A stretch of 64,000 nucleotides of DNA from Desulfobacteraceae bacterium (GTDB lineage: Bacteria; Desulfobacterota; Desulfobacteria; Desulfobacterales; JAABTS01). How positions within the stretch are numbered: the first letter of the stretch is position 1; the number at the start of each line of letters is the position of its first letter. The position numbers and the translations under genes were made by a program. Shown piece after piece: positions 972 through 45,810 of the stretch. Location of the stretch: assembly GCA_011389735.1 (NCBI GenBank), contig JAABTS010000004.1:3245-67244 (forward strand), given 5' to 3'. The notes under the pieces were generated by a model that saw nothing but the letters and a program-made list of their open reading frames with translations, did not search any database and had not been told where the DNA came from.

Positions 972-1262
972 TATATGCTTCCGGAAACCAAATTTCACTG
1001 TGTCGCCGGCCCTGGATATACGAGTAGGGGCCTGGTTCTAAGTTCGGCCATAATTTTTCTGGTTGCTCCGGAGCGCCAAAGTCGGAGACTGCGCTTCGTA
1101 AGTCGCGGGTTACAAACCCGCTCAGAGCAAGAGACCCGCTCGGAGGGGGTTTGCAACCCCCGGCTTACTCCGGCGCTCTGGCCGATCTTAGAATCAAGCC
1201 CTACGAGTAGTATGATCCCGGGCCTGCCGCTTGGTGAAATTTAAATTCTGAAAACCTTTATA
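972..1262 (+). mobile_element. Family A MITE interrupted by a family B element
   Basis: A left half 972-1027 and right half 1202-1262 flank the B insertion. Confidence 0.8.
1028..1201 (+). mobile_element. Family B MITE (174 bp) with REP-like hairpin cargo
   Basis: TIRs GGGCCTGGTTCTAAGTTCGGCCA / TGGCCGATCTTAGAATCAAGCCC. Flanking direct repeat TACGAGTA(G) at 1019-1027 and 1202-1210. Near-identical to 6220-6393. Confidence 0.85.
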
Positions 1263-1402
1263 TTCGGTTACGGCCCGGCGTAAGGGGCGGACTCATTTAC
1301 ATGTTCGAAGGAAACGCATGTTGATTTTTTTCTGTTTTAATGTTTTATTCAGTCCTGTTGTTTTCTTGAGCTTGTAATCGTGCTACAGTTTTGCAGATAT
1401 TA

Positions 1403-1621
1403 TATAGATTTTCAAGCATCCTTCATAAACCCAGGAAAGTGGTTGACACTTTCCAAGTCGGGATCGGGATCGGGATCCCGATTTTGATGAAACTGTAAAC
1501 AAGAAATGAAGGATGCCCATTTTCAGGAATTAAATTTCACCAGGCGGGGCGCCCGAGATAACACTGTTCGTATGTCCCAGGCCGTCAACTCAGTGAAATT
1601 GAATTTCCGGAAGGCGATATA
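1403..1621 (-). mobile_element. Family A MITE whose terminal repeat is split by a family C element
   Basis: Removing 1415-1525 restores the A end TATAGATTTTCAGGAATTAAATTTCAC. Confidence 0.75.
1415..1517 (+). mobile_element. Family C MITE (short variant)
   Basis: TIR GCATCCTTCAT/ATGAAGGATGC. Flanks GATTTTCA / CATTTTCA (7 of 8 match). GGGATC hexamers inside. Confidence 0.75.
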
Positions 1622-1640
1622 ATCCACTTAGGAAAAGGAG

Positions 1641-2408
1641 ATGTACATGAAAGGAAGAAGAGCACCGCTGTTATACGTTATTCCCTTAATTCTGATTTCT
1701 CTGTGCGGTATTGCACACGCTGACGAAATAACACTGACGAGTTGCGACTGGGAACCCTACACGGGAGAAAATATGCCGGGCTATGGGTTCACCGCTGAAA
1801 TTATCGACAGAGCGATGAAACGGGTCGGCCATAAAGTGACCTTCGTATTTTATCCCTGGAAAAGAGCCGTGTACGAAACAAAAAAAGGCCGGGTTCACGG
1901 CGCGTTTTCCGCCTACCACAGCAAGGAGAGGGCCGAGACCTTCGCTTTGTCGGAACCTTACGCCTTCAGTCAGTTGATGCTGTGCGCCAAAAAGGGAAGG
2001 GAAGTCATCTATAATTCTATCGAGGATTTAAGGCCGTATCGAATCGGTGTGGTTGCAGGGTATGCGAATACAGCGGAAATTGACGGCGCGCATTATTTGA
2101 CAAAAGATGAAGCGCCGTCGGATCTGTTAAACATCAAAAAATTGCTGACGAACCGGGTTGACTTGATTGTAGTCGACCGCTATGTAGCCGTTTATCATGT
2201 TAAAAATTCCGCAGCCATTGAATACACTGTCAATGATATTGATTTTATTGAACCGCCGCTAAAAAAACAGCCCATCTATATCATGTTTTCCAGGGCCGTC
2301 CCCGGATATCAACGCTACGTAGCGGATTTCAACAAAGGGCTCGAGCTTGTGAAGGCGGACGGAAGTATCGGCAACATTATGGAAAAGTACGGATTTTTCA
2401 ATCAGTGA
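1641..2408 (+). CDS. Periplasmic substrate-binding protein (SBP family 3-like)
   Basis: Signal peptide, DWEPY...GF..EI, YPWKRA, GRV/NRVDL motifs. RBS AAGGAG. Confidence 0.85.
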   Translation: MYMKGRRAPLLYVIPLILISLCGIAHADEITLTSCDWEPYTGENMPGYGFTAEIIDRAMKRVGHKVTFVFYPWKRAVYETKKGRVHGAFSAYHSKERAETFALSEPYAFSQLMLCAKKGREVIYNSIEDLRPYRIGVVAGYANTAEIDGAHYLTKDEAPSDLLNIKKLLTNRVDLIVVDRYVAVYHVKNSAAIEYTVNDIDFIEPPLKKQPIYIMFSRAVPGYQRYVADFNKGLELVKADGSIGNIMEKYGFFNQ

Positions 2409-2556
2409 CGCCTGTAAACGCTCAAAACGTTTTAATCGCATACGTTATTGTTAACAGCGACCAGTTCGCTTTTCGCAAGGTTTTTAGAACATGGTAAAGG
2501 CTATAGCGGCCTGGCGGGCACGCCTGTCATTGCGAACATCAGGGGAGGGGCGGCAA

Positions 2557-3000
2557 ATGAAAGCGGCCGGGATAAACATTGCGGCGCTATCGGCGCTCTT
2601 GGTTTGTATCGGATGCGTCGGTCCGAATTTGTCGGCGGTGGAATGGATTCAGCGGGGCTCGGAATTCGAAAAGGAGGGCCGTTACGCCGCTGCGGCGAAA
2701 GCCTACACGAAGGCGTTGAACAAGGATCCCGGCGATGCGAACGTTTATATGTATCGCGGTTTGGTGTACACCATGCTCGGAAAATGGGAGCGGGGGATCG
2801 CGGATCTGACGACCGCTCTGAAAATCAAGCCGGACAGCGCCCTTTTTTATACCATACGGGGAATCATGCGATTCGACCACGGGGATTTTGAAAAGGCGGT
2901 TGAAGATGCGGAACAGGCGACCCGGCTAGATCCGGAAAGCTATAAAACGTTCCGCCGGGATATGGAAACCGAAATCCGTAAACTGAAGCATAAAAAATAA
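2557..3000 (+). CDS. TPR-repeat protein, probable lipoprotein
   Basis: Hydrophobic N-terminus with CIGC lipobox-like site. TPR motifs (AYTKAL..DP..ANVYMYRG). Confidence 0.75.
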   Translation: MKAAGINIAALSALLVCIGCVGPNLSAVEWIQRGSEFEKEGRYAAAAKAYTKALNKDPGDANVYMYRGLVYTMLGKWERGIADLTTALKIKPDSALFYTIRGIMRFDHGDFEKAVEDAEQATRLDPESYKTFRRDMETEIRKLKHKK

Positions 3001-3182
3001 GGGCTTGGTTCTATCTTCGGCCATTTCTTCTTGCATGAAAACTCTCACAGGGGCACAGAGGCACAGAGGCGCAAAGGTTAAAAAATTATTCATTGCGCCC
3101 CGGTGACTTTGTGAGATTTCTTTATTAAACAGCAAGCGGGCGTAGATTGGATATTCTAATGGCCGATCTTAGAACCAACCCC
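3001..3182 (+). mobile_element. Family B MITE with GGCACAGA octamer cargo
   Basis: TIRs GGGCTTGGTTCTATCTTCGGCCAT / ATGGCCGATCTTAGAACCAACCCC. Exact 8-bp duplication AAAAATAA at 2993-3000 and 3183-3190. Confidence 0.85.
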
Positions 3183-3244
3183 AAAAATAAAGCCGGCCCG
3201 ACCTGCAGGTTTTAAGAAATTTATTTTTTTCTGTAGAACCCGGA

Positions 3245-4270
3245 TCATTCAAAATATGGCTTCAACACGCCGGCGATATCTTCAGGATAAGCCATACAAA
3301 GCGTTTCATTGTACAAGTTTCTCAAAGCGCCGATATCCGGAGTTCCCAGGGCCGGATTGAAAAAGGTGCGAGGCGAAAAGAGAATATGAAAACGGGTGAA
3401 CTCATCTGTCTCGGCGCCGGTGAAAAAGTTCAGATTGAAGCTGTAGATTCCCATGTCGTCGTAAGCGGCCATCGCCCTGGTCAGGCCCAGGCCGATATCG
3501 AATAGATCCTGATTCGTCAGATCCAGGGTCGACGCCGCGCCTTCGACCACCCCCAGCACATCGCCCGCCACGCCGAACGGGGCATAGGCCGAAAGCCATG
3601 TGGTTCGTCCGGTTTTCCCGAGAAATCTCTCACCTGAATTTGTTTCCGATTGAATCAGATCTTCCCAGTAATTCGACCCGTTTTGATCTTGATACCGTTT
3701 TGCGGCGATGAGTTCTTCAACCATGATATTCGGAGCCGACGCAGATGAAAACACCTGCAAATGGGGATGGATCAGCGAGCTTCCGGACACCGGCATATAG
3801 TTCCAGTTAACGAGATAATACACCGCTTCGTGATGCTTCAAATCCCTCACCCGCCGAAAAAAGGACATCGCCAGGCTGAATCCCCGGCCGATTAAATCCG
3901 CCGTTATTTCAGTCATGGGGATGTAATGTCTCGCTCCCAGAGTCGCAACCGCACTAAGGCAGTCATACGGGGCGAGGTTAGGAAACAAAACCATGTCATC
4001 CAGTGTCAAACGGCCTTCAGGGATGATTTCCGGAGGAAAATGAGGCGTTACCTCAAAAATACGTTCCGCGCAAAATGGACAATTGGTTTCAGTTCCGGCC
4101 GTCATTTTTTCAAAATCGGGCTTGGGCCATGAAAGCTTCATGAAATGGCATATTCGAGCGGTTCTGCCGGTGAGCGGATCTTTCCGGATTTCACTCGGAA
4201 TTGACCGCCGCTCCATGTTTTTTAGCGGATTTAAAAGAACGGTTTCTTTTTTTAAAGCTTCGAATTCCAT
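3245..4270 (-). CDS. Galactose-1-phosphate uridylyltransferase-like (GalT/HIT superfamily) protein
   Basis: EIRKDPLTG, CPFC, FPNLAPY and SGSSLIHPHLQ motifs. Start moved to MEFEAL after RBS GGGAGG. Confidence 0.8.
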   Translation of the reverse strand: MEFEALKKETVLLNPLKNMERRSIPSEIRKDPLTGRTARICHFMKLSWPKPDFEKMTAGTETNCPFCAERIFEVTPHFPPEIIPEGRLTLDDMVLFPNLAPYDCLSAVATLGARHYIPMTEITADLIGRGFSLAMSFFRRVRDLKHHEAVYYLVNWNYMPVSGSSLIHPHLQVFSSASAPNIMVEELIAAKRYQDQNGSNYWEDLIQSETNSGERFLGKTGRTTWLSAYAPFGVAGDVLGVVEGAASTLDLTNQDLFDIGLGLTRAMAAYDDMGIYSFNLNFFTGAETDEFTRFHILFSPRTFFNPALGTPDIGALRNLYNETLCMAYPEDIAGVLKPYFE

Positions 4271-4663: not shown

Positions 4664-4788
4664 GCGTTTGAACGAAAAGTCTTAAAATACGGCTCTGAGC
4701 GGGTGTTTGTAACCCGAGTGCCCCCTCTCGCGGCAAACGGGGATTGCAAATCCCCAGGGAGCGTGAGGAGGTTTTCGTTCAGCCGCAA
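4662..4788 (+). mobile_element. Family D element (TIR-bounded, REP-like hairpins inside)
   Basis: Ends GCGTTTGAACGAAAA / TTTTCGTTCAGCCGC. Core GCTCTGAGCGGG..TTTGTAACCCG...GGGGATTGCAAATCCCC is repeated at 8471, 26761 and partly at 11757 and 18784. Confidence 0.7.
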
Positions 4789-4823
4789 TATATCAATTAT
4801 CAATTCAATATTAAGGAGGTCGT

Positions 4824-6092
4824 ATGTACGATTTTTTGCTGACGCCGGAAGAAAGGGAATTGAAGAAAGAAGTGCGGAAATACGTTCGTGAGGAGATCAC
4901 TGGCGATTTTCTGAGAAAGATGGATAAAAACGAAATCATCTATCCGAATGAATTTGTTCAACGGCTTGCCGAATTGGGGTTGCGTGGAATACGGTTTCCC
5001 AAAAAATACGGCGGCCGGGAAATGAGCTGGGTCGCCGATGTGGCCGCCACCGAAGAAATCGGGTGTTTGGGGATGGCCTTGGGATGCGCGTTCGTGATGC
5101 CGTCCATTGTCGGAGAAGCATTGAACATGTTCGGAACCGAAGAACAAAAAGAAAAATATCTTGCGCCATACATCAAGGGCGAATTGATCGCCGCCGAAGC
5201 GCTGACCGAACCCCGCGGCGGTTCTGATTTTTTCGGGGCCATGACCAGAGCGGAACTCAAAGGCGACCACTTTGTGCTGAACGGTATGAAACGGTTTGTG
5301 GTGGGAGCTGAAGGGGCTGATTTTTTTCTGGTGTATTGCAGAACCAATTTGGATCCCGATGCGCACAAATACCAGCGGCTGAGTCTGCTGGTGGTGGAAC
5401 GGGGTCCCGGCGTGGAAACGGAATATCTGTATGGTCTCATGGGCTGCCGGGGGGGCGGCACTGGACGGCTGGTGTTTCGGAATGTGAAAGTTCCCAGGGA
5501 AAATCTGATCGGCGAACTACACGGAGGCGCTCTGTGTTTTCATCAGATGATGATCCCCGAGCGGCTTACATCGGCGGCCGGATGCCTCGGCGTATGGGGG
5601 GCTCTCGATCTGGCGGTTCGGTATTCCAACCAGAGACGAACATTCGGCAAGGAGATTCGCAATTACCAGGGAGTGAGTTTCAATGTGGCCGATTCCATCA
5701 CCCAGCTTGACGCAGCCCGGTCGATCACCTACATGGCGGCCCGGGCCGTGGATGAAAACTATTCCAATGTCCGAAGAATCGTCAGCGAGGCCAAACGGTT
5801 CGCCACGGAATCCGCATGGGAGGTAGTGAATAACGCCATGCAGATTATGGGAGGCATCGGCTATACGGATGTGTATCCTATAGAACGTTCTCTCCGGGAC
5901 ACCCGGCTGGGCATGATCTGGACGGGCACCAGCGAAATCATGAATCTCATGATTCAACACGAGTATTATAACGAAGTTCTCAGTCCGGCTTACGACCGCC
6001 GGAAAATGGAGGAGGACGCCATGAATCCGGATGAAAGCGAACGGTGCTACTCCGATGAAGACATGGAGAGGGTTTTTGGAGGCGAGCTGTAG
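4824..6092 (+). CDS. Acyl-CoA dehydrogenase
   Basis: ALTEPRGGSD, LNGMKRFV, R..FGKEI, AMQIMGGIGY, IWTGTSEI. RBS AAGGAGGT. Confidence 0.93.
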   Translation: MYDFLLTPEERELKKEVRKYVREEITGDFLRKMDKNEIIYPNEFVQRLAELGLRGIRFPKKYGGREMSWVADVAATEEIGCLGMALGCAFVMPSIVGEALNMFGTEEQKEKYLAPYIKGELIAAEALTEPRGGSDFFGAMTRAELKGDHFVLNGMKRFVVGAEGADFFLVYCRTNLDPDAHKYQRLSLLVVERGPGVETEYLYGLMGCRGGGTGRLVFRNVKVPRENLIGELHGGALCFHQMMIPERLTSAAGCLGVWGALDLAVRYSNQRRTFGKEIRNYQGVSFNVADSITQLDAARSITYMAARAVDENYSNVRRIVSEAKRFATESAWEVVNNAMQIMGGIGYTDVYPIERSLRDTRLGMIWTGTSEIMNLMIQHEYYNEVLSPAYDRRKMEEDAMNPDESERCYSDEDMERVFGGEL

Positions 6093-6097
6093 GAAGA

Positions 6098-6576
6098 CCG
6101 CTTTTCATAAATTAATTTCACAAAGCGGCCGGCCCGGGATCATTCTATAGCTTTTCAGATAATTAATTTCACTGCGTTGTCGGCGCGGGGATATACGAAT
6201 TTTATTATGTTGAATGTTGGGGCTTGGTTCTAATTTCGGCCATAATTTCTCGGGTTGCTCCGGAGCGCCAAAGCCGGAGACTGCGCTTCGTAAGTCGCGG
6301 GTTACAAACCCGCTCAGAGCAAGAGACCCGCTCAGAGGGGGTTTGCAACCCCCGGCTTACCCTGGCGCTCTGGCCGATCTTAGAATCAAGCCCGAATGTT
6401 GAATGTGAATTTCCCCCATTTAGCATTTAACATTTAGCATTCAACATAAATAATTTAGCATTGAACACAAAATTCAACAATTTCGGGCCTGCCGCCTTAT
6501 GAAATTTAATTCCTGAAAAACTATATTCTTGTATCCCGGGCCGGCGACACGCTGAAATTAAATTATCTGAAAGGCC
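6098..6576. mobile_element. Triple-nested MITE: A(-) contains long A(+) 6148-6523, which contains B 6220-6393
   Basis: Inner A is flanked by TA (6146-47, 6524-25). B is flanked by GAATGTTG (6212-19, 6394-6401). The outer halves rejoin into a short A. Confidence 0.85.
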
Positions 6577-6592
6577 GGAGGTTTCTCGAAAT

Positions 6593-6883
6593 TCAAATTT
6601 GAGATAGCCGGTCCGCAATTCTGATAGCGAAAACCTTTACCGGTTCGGGTCCGAAATGAGGATGCGTTATGGTTTTGACGGTATAACCGGCCCAGGGTTT
6701 GATCAAGGTTTTAGACATGTCTCCTGTGGACGGATATCCGCATAAGAGGTGGATTTCATCGTACTCCCGGCTCAACCGTTTTTCCCAATACGGCTTTACC
6801 AAACGGTATTCTTCGGTTTTTTCACCGTTCCGGATTTGATCGAAATATTCTTTTTTCAAGTTGAGCCGGAGTATCCTTTTCAT
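6593..6883 (-). CDS. ASCH/PUA-domain protein
   Basis: L.LKKEYFDQIRNGEKTEEYR carries the ASCH GxKxxExR motif. Confidence 0.85.
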   Translation of the reverse strand: MKRILRLNLKKEYFDQIRNGEKTEEYRLVKPYWEKRLSREYDEIHLLCGYPSTGDMSKTLIKPWAGYTVKTITHPHFGPEPVKVFAIRIADRLSQI

Positions 6884-6942
6884 ATGATTTTCTGATTTTC
6901 GCGTTATCATTTTTCAGCAATTCGGATTTCTTGATCTCTAAC

Positions 6943-7132
6943 TACAGGTTTTCAGATATTACATTTCAGAAGGCTCGAGGGAGGAGATAATAGGCATCTT
7001 TCATAAATGCTGATAAATAGTTTACACTTCCCAAATAGGTATGGGTATCGAATTATTACGATCCCGATCCCGATCCCGATCCCGATTTTGATGAAACTGT
7101 AAACAAGAAATGAAGGATGCCGGAAGACTATA
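6943..7132. mobile_element. A' remnant with family C element (6993-7121, 129 bp)
   Basis: C TIRs GGCATCTTTCAT / ATGAAGGATGCC, near-identical to 45682-45810. Left flank is half an A'; right flank is only the A tip GGAAGACTATA. Confidence 0.8.
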
Positions 7133-11756: not shown

Positions 11757-11937
11757 CTGTTCTGAGCGGGTTTGCTCACCACAAGGTTAAAGGTTACAGG
11801 GTGCAGGCTTTTTCATAATTATGGTTCTAACCTGCCCCCCTTATCGGGATCGGGATCGGGATCGAAATTGAATCCTTCGATAACGATCCCGATCCCGATC
11901 CCGATCCAAATGAACCTGCCCCCTGCCCCCTTTAACC
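11757..11937. repeat. Composite repeat: D fragment, heptamer-type palindrome E, and GATCCC hairpin module
   Basis: GGTTAAAGG...CAGGGTGCAGG is inverted to CCTGCCCCCTGCCCCCTTTAACC. The hexamer hairpin 11841-11912 is bracketed by AACCTGCCCCC direct repeats. Confidence 0.7.
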
Positions 11938-17650: not shown

Positions 17651-18041
17651 GGGCCTGGTTCTATCTTCGGCCATTTTCATTTATCGGGATCGGGTTCGAA
17701 ACTGAATCCTTCGATAACGATCCCGATCCCGATCCCGATCCCGATCCCGATTTGGATTCAAAAACTTCAAGCCCAATCACTAAACTGATGGCTGAAGTTA
17801 TAGCTTTTCAGATAATTAATTTCATTTCGTTGTCGGCCCGGGGATATACGAATTTTATTATGTTGGATGTTGGATGTTGAATGTTGGATGTGAGTCCCCC
17901 CATTTAGCATTTAACATTTAGCATTCAACATAAATAATTTAGCATTCAACATAAATAATTTAGCATTGAACACATAATTCAACAATCCAGCGCCCGCCGC
18001 CTTATGAAATTTAATTCCTGAAAAGCTATAGAACCAATACC
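17651..18041 (+). mobile_element. Family B MITE with GATCCC cargo; right TIR interrupted by long family A (17801-18028)
   Basis: 8-bp duplication TTTTTTAA (17643-50, 18042-49). GAAGT-TA-[A]-TA-GAACC restores the B TIR. Confidence 0.88.
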
Positions 18042-26443: not shown

Positions 26444-26591
26444 TTTGCGGAGCCGGTCCGGGCTGTTCACGCTTTTAAATCCTTGTTGGCGCCCGGTTCC
26501 GTCCAATCACGAATTGTTTTTTGGCCGCTCAATATCACTAATAACTTACCAGATGTATTGACATTTTTATAAAAAAGTGTGATATCCGAGT

Positions 26592-26935
26592 TATAGTCTT
26601 CCGGAAATTTAATTTCACTGCGTTGTCGGCCCGGGATATACTAAATTTATTATGTTGGATGTTGGATGTTGGATGTTGAATGTTGGATGTTGAATGTTGA
26701 ATGTTGGATGTAGGATGTTGAATTTGAGTGCCCCATTTAACATTTAACATTTGGAATTACTGCTCTGAGCGGGTTTGTAACCCGCGTCTACCCTCTCGCG
26801 GCCAACGGGGATTACAAATCCCCTTGGAGCGTGAGGAGGTTTTCGTTCATCCACTAATTATGCTGAATGTTGGATGTTGAATGTGATTGCCCCATTTAAC
26901 ATTTAGCATCTAACATTTAACATTTTTTAACATTT
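26592..26935 (+). mobile_element. Long family A remnant with 10 heptamer repeats and an inserted D core (26761-26856)
   Basis: A left TIR; (TGTTGRA)10 at 26653-26722; D core with right TIR TTTTCGTTCATCCACTA. Confidence 0.75.
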
Positions 26936-26984
26936 TTTTATAAAATTCAGGCTTTAACGGAAATACGCATCAACACGGGCGCCT

Positions 26985-30893: not shown

Positions 30894-30922
30894 TTGACAT
30901 AAAAACATCTTTATCCTATAGT
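30894..30922 (+). promoter_or_regulatory. Sigma70 promoter whose -10 is the end of a family A MITE
   Basis: TTGACA-N17-TATAGT. Confidence 0.6.
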
Positions 30923-31030
30923 TTTCCGGAAATTCAATTTTACTGCGTTGTGGGACCGGGTATACATAATTTTATTATGTTGGATGTTGGATGTTGAATG
31001 TTGAATGTTGGATGTTGGATGTTGAATGTT
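30917..31030 (+). mobile_element. Left half of long family A with (TGTTGRA)7
   Basis: A left TIR; heptamers at 30978-31026. Confidence 0.75.
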
Positions 31031-31074
31031 TTTTGATTTATTTGAACGTATAAAAACTGAATAGAGAAAAGCAT

Positions 31075-42732: not shown

Positions 42733-43058
42733 TATAGCTTTTCAGACAATTAATTTCATCGCGTTGTCGGCCCGTGGATATACGAGTTATGTTGAGTGAG
42801 GTTGGAGGTTTCAGGGTACAGGGTGCAGGGTTTTTCATAATTATGGTTCTATAGCTTTTCAGATAATTAATTTCACTGCGTTGTCGGCCCGGGGTATACG
42901 AATTTTATTATGTTGAATGTTGAATGTTGAATGTTGAATGTTGAATGTTGAATGTTGAATGCGAATCCCCCATTTAGCATTTAACATTCAACATTCAACA
43001 CAAAATGCAACGCTCCCGGGCCTGCCGCCTTGTGAAATTGAATTCCTGAAAAACTATA
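42733..43058 (+). mobile_element. A left half + E fragment + complete long family A (42852-43056)
   Basis: Complete A flanked by TA (42850-51, 43057-58), inserted at GGTTC-TA; (TGTTGAA)7 at 42911-42959. Confidence 0.82.
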
Positions 43059-45588: not shown

Positions 45589-45681
45589 CGAAAATCCAAT
45601 ATTCTTGTTTTTTTTGAACGCTGACGAATTTAATTGCAATGATGAAAATCAAACAGGCCGAAAAAAAGCAAGAAAAAAATC

Positions 45682-45810
45682 GGCGTCTTTCATAAATGCT
45701 GATAAATAGTTTACACTTCCCAAATCGGAATCGGTATCGAATTATTACGATCCCGATCCCGATCCCGATCCCGATTTTGATGAAACTGTAAACAAGAAAT
45801 GAAGGACGCC
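45682..45810 (+). mobile_element. Family C MITE (129 bp)
   Basis: TIRs GGCGTCTTTCAT / ATGAAGGACGCC. Exact 8-bp duplication AAAAAATC (45674-81, 45811-18). Confidence 0.88.

Follow-up and report, generated by a model that had tools for sequence, protein, structure and literature searches.

Jiang and Wessler are said to have found in 2001 that plant MITEs prefer other MITEs as targets. Nested prokaryotic elements have been called 'Russian dolls' (PMC3852290), and a review of small bacterial repeats has no 'nested' passage (PMC3184786). REP sequences have been described as targets of insertion sequences, with the idea that they are harmless ones (PMC1525189, PMC12288879). The MITEs of Ca. Thiomargarita nelsonii have direct-repeat TATAG ends and were likened to Correia elements, TATA ends being linked to IS630 (PMC4853749). 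In Microcystis, MITEs make up 1.8% of the genome (PMC2779907), comparable to the family that we call A here. Our searches of the open literature for MITEs in Desulfonema or Desulfobacter* gave nothing relevant. The locus described below is a nest of this ordinary, known kind, formed between MITE families A and B, of which the open literature searched held no description.

The nest lies in a window of 64,000 nt (the whole stretch of DNA analysed; G000:C341:3245-67244) from a 6.52-Mb assembly of 477 contigs with 48.8% G+C and a completeness of 96.9%. The window has 31 clusters of sequence that is present at least five times in the genome, which together make up about 10% of its length, and MITE repeats probably also fragment the assembly. 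On its left the nest is flanked by an acyl-CoA dehydrogenase gene on the forward strand (4824-6092; Pfam Acyl-CoA_dh_N, _M and _1; stop codon 6090-6092), whose closest relatives, at 86% identity or less, are in Desulfobacterales and Desulfobacteraceae MAGs. On its right is a convergent ORF of 105 aa on the reverse strand (6593-6910), for which the ORF list and Pfam gave no confident family. By arithmetic from the coordinates, the spacer between these two convergent gene ends would be only ~21 bp without the nest. An Rfam search of 5900-6800 returned sub-threshold matches only (for example tRNA-Sec, at 21.9 bits where 47 bits are required), which we take as chance. The repeats create spurious ORFs, such as the one at 6205-6426.

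The initial annotation had described 6098-6576 as three levels of insertion, a short A split by a long A that is itself split by B, and all of its coordinates were borne out by our reading of the sequence. The outermost element is a short A on the reverse strand. Its left portion (6098-6147, arm TTTCACAAAGCGGCCGGCCCGGG) starts 6 bp past the dehydrogenase stop codon, its right portion (6524-6576, arm CCCGGGCCGGCGACACGCTGAAA) fits the short A model, and the two arms form a 34-nt inverted repeat at 79%. This element, of ~100 bp, is degenerate; its termini and duplication have decayed, so its exact ends are approximate and it has no recognisable TA ends. A long A on the forward strand (6148-6523) interrupts it at a TA, and one copy of the TA stands on either side of the long A (6146-6147 and 6524-6525). 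The left portion of long A (6148-6219) consists of the terminal repeat TAGCTTTTCAGATAATTAATTTCA, an arm and the start of a (GAATGTT)n tract, and matches many copies of 94-97% over 72/72 positions. Its right portion (6394-6523) holds the end of the heptamer tract, an inverse (CATTTAG/AACATT) tract, an arm and the terminal repeat.

Within the heptamer tract sits the third element, a 174-bp MITE B on the forward strand (6220-6393), bounded by the terminal repeat GGGCTTGGTTCTAATTTCGGCCA and its inverse and identical to its family consensus at 172/174 positions. B is flanked by an exact 8-bp target duplication, GAATGTTG, at 6212-6219 and 6394-6401. It carries a REP-like double hairpin (6276-6362) with 31-nt arms at 84%. 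The long A::B unit as a whole measures 376 bp, starts with TAGCTTTTCAGATAATTAATTTCA, ends with TGAAATTTAATTCCTGAAAAACTA, and has a 26-nt inverted repeat at 81%.

Empty sites were rebuilt by deleting the guest and one copy of its duplication, the test being whether the host's family model then spans the junction. With long A removed, the short A model matched the outer host with an E-value of 8.8e-24 over model positions 4-101 of 103; with B removed, the long A model matched with an E-value of 1.3e-59. Deletion of B and one GAATGTTG also leaves the heptamer register uninterrupted, and the register-breaking 'GG' is gone. Because the 7-bp register is restored in this way, the GAATGTTG duplication is genuine and does not simply follow from the tandem repeat. 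Other nests that had been reported in the window were upheld as well. B in A at 1028 has a 9-bp duplication, TACGAGTAG, and a host matching with an E-value of 3.2e-30; C in an A terminus at 1415 (C itself at 1416) has a duplication that agrees at 7/8 positions; and the site restored by removing A at 17801 equals a B-type end at 18/22 positions. For A in E at 42852, the restored host matched the long A model (E 3.8e-16), and for this reason we regard E as a variant related to A. The copy-number profile is consistent with the reported A' in A at 198.

Family A was sought with a 50-position terminus model. This found 1,305 termini, from which 385 pairs could be formed; 250 pairs span 100-119 bp and represent short A, and 46-48 pairs span 190-270 bp and represent long A. 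With typical sizes of ~103 bp for short A and ~200-270 bp for long A, these elements are small (<600 bp), non-coding and multi-copy, as MITEs are; long A is the short A backbone with ~120 bp of extra internal sequence that includes a variable heptamer microsatellite. In total the family occupies 127,913 bp (1.96% of the genome), with 88.7% of this sequence in crudely defined non-coding DNA. TA was present on both sides of 136/208 complete pairs. Across 403 termini, positions -2 and -1 were T (83%) and A (85%), and the first bases of the element are TAG. Since the restored host of the 17801 copy reads TTAGAA, with a single TA as in B's end, the duplication made by A is a single TA.

The two arms of A are consistently unequal (CACTGCGTTGTCGG vs CACAAGGCGGCAGG), both here and in other genomes. 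Stack-pairing left 535/1,305 termini (41%) unpaired, 47 of them near contig ends. Inspection of six unpaired termini showed four truncated half-elements that end in or just past the heptamer tract and two with a decayed or divergent second arm; so many half-elements are not accounted for by a simple MITE model. The A-type end (TAGNTTTTCAGAWATTWAATTTCAC, starting TAGNTTTTCAGA...) occurs at no fewer than 61 loci in other genomes, mostly Deltaproteobacteria/Desulfobacterales MAGs, plus Desulfonema magnum. Across these genomes the unequal arms are conserved and the middle is variable. A few matches in Bacteroidota and Paenibacillus may be chance.

Duplication of TA is the signature of IS630/Tc1-mariner-type transposases. 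Among the DDE_3 loci of three genomes with the A-end pattern, we found in D. magnum an intact 1,322-bp element (L155:851-2172) that has TA on both sides, ends TAGATGTTCAGAAAAATAATTTCA and TAGTTTTTCAGAAAAATAATTTCA, and an ORF of 384 aa with HTH_23, HTH_29, HTH_33 and DDE_3 domains. The A terminus model matched this element, the one intact copy inspected and in another genome, with an E-value of 6.5e-4 over positions 1-28, exactly at the element's end. Family A duplicates TA and has ends that correspond to those of this intact element of the IS630 family; it is therefore an IS630-type MITE.

A cognate transposase was not found in this genome, where the D. magnum protein had 0 matches at E <= 0.01. 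The sole DDE_3 gene of the genome, on contig C476, was rejected as the source, its 42-nt ends (CTAGTGTCGCGTTTTGAAAG) being unrelated to A. Nor was an autonomous A found here: the ORFs between paired A ends at distances of 0.7-4.5 kb are unrelated and show no recurrent size, and the small contigs hold no transposase flanked by such ends. A collapsed or unassembled insertion sequence is possible in an assembly of 477 contigs that is 96.9% complete. At a SEEP-SRB2 locus (L151), a 23/24 match to the long A end lies beside a DDE_3 gene; we set it aside because it is a mini-palindrome of 46 bp that lacks a clear second end.

A blast search of the genome with B gave 349 matches, including 70 full-length ones at identities of 82-100%. 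A profile search gave 315 matches, of which 215 were distinct and 68 full length after de-duplication. Family B covers 23,217 bp. Duplications around these 68 copies were exact in 40 cases by length class (33 of 8 bp, 6 of 9 bp and 1 of 7 bp), had one mismatch in 11, and were absent in 17. Both A and B have the terminal inverted repeats and target-site duplications of MITEs. The 8-bp duplications of B are 73% AT, with positions 2-4 rich in A and positions 5-7 rich in T (AAA/TTT-like), a target pattern that the ends of A (…TTAAATTTCA…) and its heptamer tract fit.

B itself was not found in 40 other genomes of the same order, all 40 of which belong to other families. B-type ends (GGGCTTGGTTCTAANTTCGGCCA, starting GGGCTTGGTTCTAA...) occur at 63 or more loci in other genomes, including Electrothrix, Desulfamplus and Desulfuromusa, and a 12.5-Mb Desulfobacterales MAG has 470 matches. 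At the loci examined, closed pairs of B ends were all MITE-sized (~45-275 bp) with genome-specific cargo, and unpaired ends were followed by unrelated genes. A plasmid collection searched with B's end gave chance-level matches only (Paenibacillus, Limosilactobacillus).

The cargo double hairpin, which the initial annotation had called REP-like, recurs at 261 loci genome-wide: 75 with both B ends, 52 with one and 134 without. Because 134/261 loci have no B ends, the cargo is an independent REP-like repeat that B carries. No Rfam family matched it above threshold. The genome has nine Y1_Tnp matches; among six of these loci searched, one, the Y1_Tnp gene at L235:1525-1989, had adjoining cargo, on one side only and ~150-250 bp downstream.

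As a candidate parent of B we considered the IS1016 group of the IS1595 family, which is characterised by 7-9-bp duplications and ends starting GGG. B agrees with these features in its 7-, 8- and 9-bp duplications and in ends that start GGGCTTGG. A PF12762 (DDE_Tnp_IS1595) element at L232:1050-2089, the sole one in a genome rich in B-type MITEs, was rejected as the parent; its ends (AGGGGCTATCCATTTCGCTGGCCT) have only short blocks in common with B, and an IS1595 parent is not supported. PF12762 had no match in the present genome. End pairs of B lying 1-3 kb apart here enclose ordinary genes (AAA_14/DUF4143, GNAT, OmpA, AbiEii, PIN) and no autonomous B, and none was seen among the loci examined in other genomes.

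Nesting gives the relative order directly: it proves that short A preceded long A and that B came after long A. Identity to consensus rises from the outside of the nest inward, from 82/100 (82%) for short A through 187/194 (96.4%) for long A to 172/174 (98.9%) for B, a gradient that fits the outer element being the oldest. The initial annotation had pointed to reciprocal nesting of A and B as a sign that they were active over overlapping periods. Genome-wide, the reciprocity was confirmed: 16/68 full B copies lie in A-family hosts, and 4/213 complete A pairs lie in B-type ends (<=5 mismatches in 22, the 17801 copy included), with 0/213 in a host matched by the whole B model. Complete pairs were those of the 385 with both termini starting at model position <=4 and a span of <=420 bp; 16 of these 213 lie in A-family hosts. 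Reconstruction misses decayed hosts, so all these nest counts are lower bounds. Because the nesting is reciprocal, the A and B superfamilies were each mobile after the other was already present. However, the family medians of identity to consensus, 86% for short A (n=259), 93% for long A (n=46) and 97% for B (n=68), suggest largely successive waves with some overlap, so the inference of shared activity stands only in this weaker form.

Public contigs support parts of the nest. Positions 6496-6971, and with them the 6524-6525 junction, are covered with 0 differences by a 476-bp contig found in two runs of the same study. A second study contributes two contigs, one of 276 bp for 5868-6143 (2 differences) and one of 459 bp for 6512-6971 (9 differences). 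With contigs from two studies covering them, the outer junctions and the junction of the long A right end with the outer arm recur in at least two data sets, among them a variant ~2% diverged. Other copies in public contigs diverge exactly at 6146, 6219/6220, 6393 and 6525. Among the independent contigs listed, none bridges 6147/6148, 6219/6220 or 6393/6394 with at least 31 bases on each side. Some joints in public contigs run from 6219 to 6413-6425 and so leave out 193-205 bp; they belong to other long A copies, which lack B and differ in heptamer number.

Two other histories of the locus have to be weighed against stepwise insertion on the spot. The nest might be an artefact, a chimeric path laid through near-identical repeats by a short-read assembly in 477 contigs: the family of every layer has tens to hundreds of near-identical copies, none of the public short contigs spans the locus, and unitigs break at each element border. 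A chimeric join, however, would produce neither matching duplications at both levels nor two intact restored hosts, and the 476-bp, 459-bp and 276-bp contigs support parts of the structure, although the best-matching data may come from the source sample and so perhaps are not independent. Given the matching duplications and the double host restoration, we consider chimeric assembly unlikely, indeed highly improbable. Alternatively, B could have entered long A elsewhere, and the 376-bp composite could then have moved into short A, in which case only two events would have happened here and the inner layers would have been added in another sequence than their positions suggest. The long A ends and the TA flanks are all intact, and an IS630-type transposase could move such a unit. 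Because the composite keeps intact ends, nesting taken by itself would be compatible with B arriving before or after long A::B entered short A. Against prior assembly of the composite, no other B-in-A copy shares both its duplication and its position, the other B-in-long-A sites being CGTTTTTT, TTGAATGT, GATAAATT and GATTGATA, and identity to the respective consensus is higher for B (98.9%) than for long A (96.4%). We regard this order of events as improbable, though less so than an assembly error.

The remaining question is whether nests such as this one are more frequent than chance would make them. Coding DNA was defined greedily from ORF length, so the non-coding estimate is crude: with ORFs of at least 90 aa, 15.2% of the genome is non-coding and A fills 11.5% of that, a share that becomes 17% with a 60-aa cut-off and 9.6% with a 150-aa cut-off. 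Under a uniform intergenic null, 7.9 cases of B in A are expected against the 16 seen (P 0.004). A target-weighted null, with a matrix from 33 non-A duplications, raises the expectation to 9.5 (P 0.024), and the alternative ORF cut-offs give 11.5 (P 0.10) or 6.6 (P 0.0006). B in A is thus 1.4-2.4 times expectation. For A in A, the share of TA sites in non-coding DNA predicts 24-38 cases and 16/213 were found; for A in B, 2.3-3.9 cases are expected and 0 (whole-B model) or 4 (end-only match) were found. Junctions of A in A cluster at short A model positions 49-60. By a count made by eye, 5/8 TA sites of the short A consensus fall at positions 45-60, so no extra preference is needed for this clustering. 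Triple nests are expected 1.2 times (16 x 16/213) and one was found; pairing of A termini gave only two A-in-A pairs, and only the one at 6098-6576 holds B.

These counts bear on the proposal, made when the nest was first noticed, that the elements serve as safe landing sites for one another. On this view the transposases of B-type (perhaps also C-type) elements would prefer A, for example through the AAATTTCA motif in its terminal repeat or the AT-rich heptamer tract, and safe landing would be a selected or mechanistic strategy like that of insertion sequences which home to REP sequences. The 16/68 B copies in A exceed both the 7.9 expected (P 0.004) and the 6.6 expected with the lax ORF cut-off (P 0.0006), 5/16 junctions fall at A-end positions 16-36 of 50, four of them at 16-24 in or beside the AAATTTCA motif, and the C at window position 1416 is also in an A terminus. 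REP sequences are moreover documented targets of insertion sequences (PMC1525189). Yet the excess falls to 1.4-1.7 times with stricter non-coding DNA or the target-weighted null (P 0.10 and 0.024), the insertion points are scattered over the A end, centre and heptamer tract, 52/68 B copies lie outside A, and neither A in A (16 vs 24-38) nor A in B (0-4 vs 2.3-3.9) is in excess. Preferential targeting is in our judgement rather unlikely. The strong site-specific excess that would mark homing to a repeat was not seen, B-in-A sites being scattered and A-in-A and A-in-B showing no excess. With A-in-A and A-in-B nests at or below expectation and B-in-A nests only 1.4-2.4 times above it, the idea of mutual safe landing sites is not sustained. 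Nesting essentially equals the random intergenic expectation, the outcome that the initial annotation had itself named as counting against its idea, save for a possible bias of B into A of up to twofold. A broader reading is similarly doubtful: that B-type (possibly C-type) MITEs home to A through an AAATTT-like core and the AT-rich microsatellite, and that A and B ends mark superfamilies, not described in the literature searched, that are order-wide, in Desulfobacterales and beyond, with lineage-specific cargo and no resident transposase here.

We are therefore left with the simpler account, which we hold with considerable confidence: the nest is a series of successive cut-and-paste MITE insertions into a tiny spacer, and nests arise mainly from the density of MITEs, with no landing-site mechanism. 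Short A, now the most decayed, inserted first, into the spacer between the convergent genes. Long A then inserted at a TA in the central loop of short A, duplicating the TA. B, with its captured REP-like doublet, would have entered the heptamer tract of long A, through 7-9-bp staggered cuts at AT-rich, AAA/TTT-like targets; the exact timing of these last two steps is presumably as given here. The transposases for all three elements would have been supplied in trans, none that fits having been found in this assembly. MITEs fill at least a tenth of the non-coding DNA that tolerates insertions, and this would be the main source of nests, with B's taste for AT-rich targets adding a modest bias.

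As an example of how nesting allows relative dating in bacteria the locus is of textbook quality, and its genome, which is Desulfobacterales-like and sulfate-reducer-like, carries an unusually heavy MITE load (A alone makes up ~2% of the genome and at least a tenth of its non-coding DNA). The A and B end types are common to many Desulfobacterales genomes. No new principle is needed; dense MITE cover and tolerated intergenic insertion explain the nests.

Among described systems, family A most resembles the Correia elements of Neisseria and the MITEs of Thiomargarita: it is ~100-230 bp long, non-coding and capable of forming hairpins, with long terminal inverted repeats, a TA duplication, ends of the form TA|TAG... 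and hundreds of mostly intergenic copies. Its sequence is unrelated to that of the Thiomargarita MITEs beyond the TATAG start, and presumably the same holds for the Correia elements. Unlike both, it has unequal arms, a heptamer microsatellite in its long form, 41% unpaired termini and no cognate transposase found in this genome. The REP-like cargo of B resembles the REP/REPIN doublets associated with RAYT (Y1) in its paired short GC-rich hairpins and in its presence at 261 loci, of which 134 lack B ends; it differs in that it was seen to adjoin one side of one Y1 gene only and in that, within the nest, the doublet lies inside a MITE bounded by terminal repeats. As with IS1397 and ISPpu9, a mobile element has landed in another intergenic repeat. 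However, those two home strongly to specific sites, whereas here the excess of B in A is at most ~2 times and the sites are scattered. Like the 'Russian doll' nests of plant MITEs and of prokaryotic insertion sequences and MITEs, the locus shows a guest within a host, with duplications and a relative order. It differs from them in having three levels made of MITEs only, in a bacterium, and such nests occur at a frequency near that expected from MITE density, with no clear preference.

More than a third of the family A termini in the genome (535 of 1,305) have no partner. Six of these were looked at, and four proved to be half elements, in which a single arm and its heptamer tract are followed directly by unique DNA. 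Unpaired termini can be seen, for example, at window 30913-31049 and at G000:C396:21049 and G000:C293:1578 elsewhere in the source assembly. The structure of the half elements suggests that the heptamer microsatellite of A is a breakpoint or deletion hotspot.

Variant E (window 42733-42850 and 11790-11830; G000:C163:7254) is another A-related subfamily, with a microsatellite that differs from that of A. Its A-type left arm leads into a G-rich tract of GGGTGCA-like heptamers, and the element ends in …TTTTTCATAATTMTGGYTCTA. Family C, with copies at window 1416-1517, 6995-7125 and 45680-45810, has GGCATCCTTCATAAA and the inverse of this sequence as its termini, shows a duplication of 8 bp and contains a (GATCCC)n hexamer repeat; 11 of its 371 blast hits are full length relative to the window copy. 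This hexamer repeat is also the cargo of two B-type variants, located at window 17654 and 21580.

A single IS630-family element was found genome-wide, at positions 1069-3442 of locus L081 (G000:C476:16274-19765). Its ends are 42 nt each with 90% identity, and it has two ORFs, one of them encoding DDE_3. The element breaks up a type III-E gRAMP (Cas7-11) gene, whose upstream fragment (347 aa; ORF 58-1101 of the locus) covers positions 1186-1524 of the 1636 in NF041225 (E 7.9e-114).

The ORF listing places ORFs of 62-73 aa wholly within the MITE nest (window 6205-6426, 6214-6402, 6224-6430 and 6427-6618). Mechanical ORF lists, and possibly annotations too, will report false genes in these repeats.

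A-type and B-type ends are common to many Thermodesulfobacteriota genomes, with middles that are genome-specific (loci L088-L148 and L161-L223). B-type ends are also borne by contigs that binning assigns to Omnitrophota and Promethearchaeota; either mis-binning or horizontal spread may account for this.

The REP-like doublet carried by B also occurs in the window without B ends, in one copy within a long A and another adjoining a short A (26581-26937 and 4690-4790). Since a further copy lies approximately 150-250 bp downstream of one Y1_Tnp gene (L235:1525-1989), the doublet and this transposase may constitute a REPIN/RAYT system.
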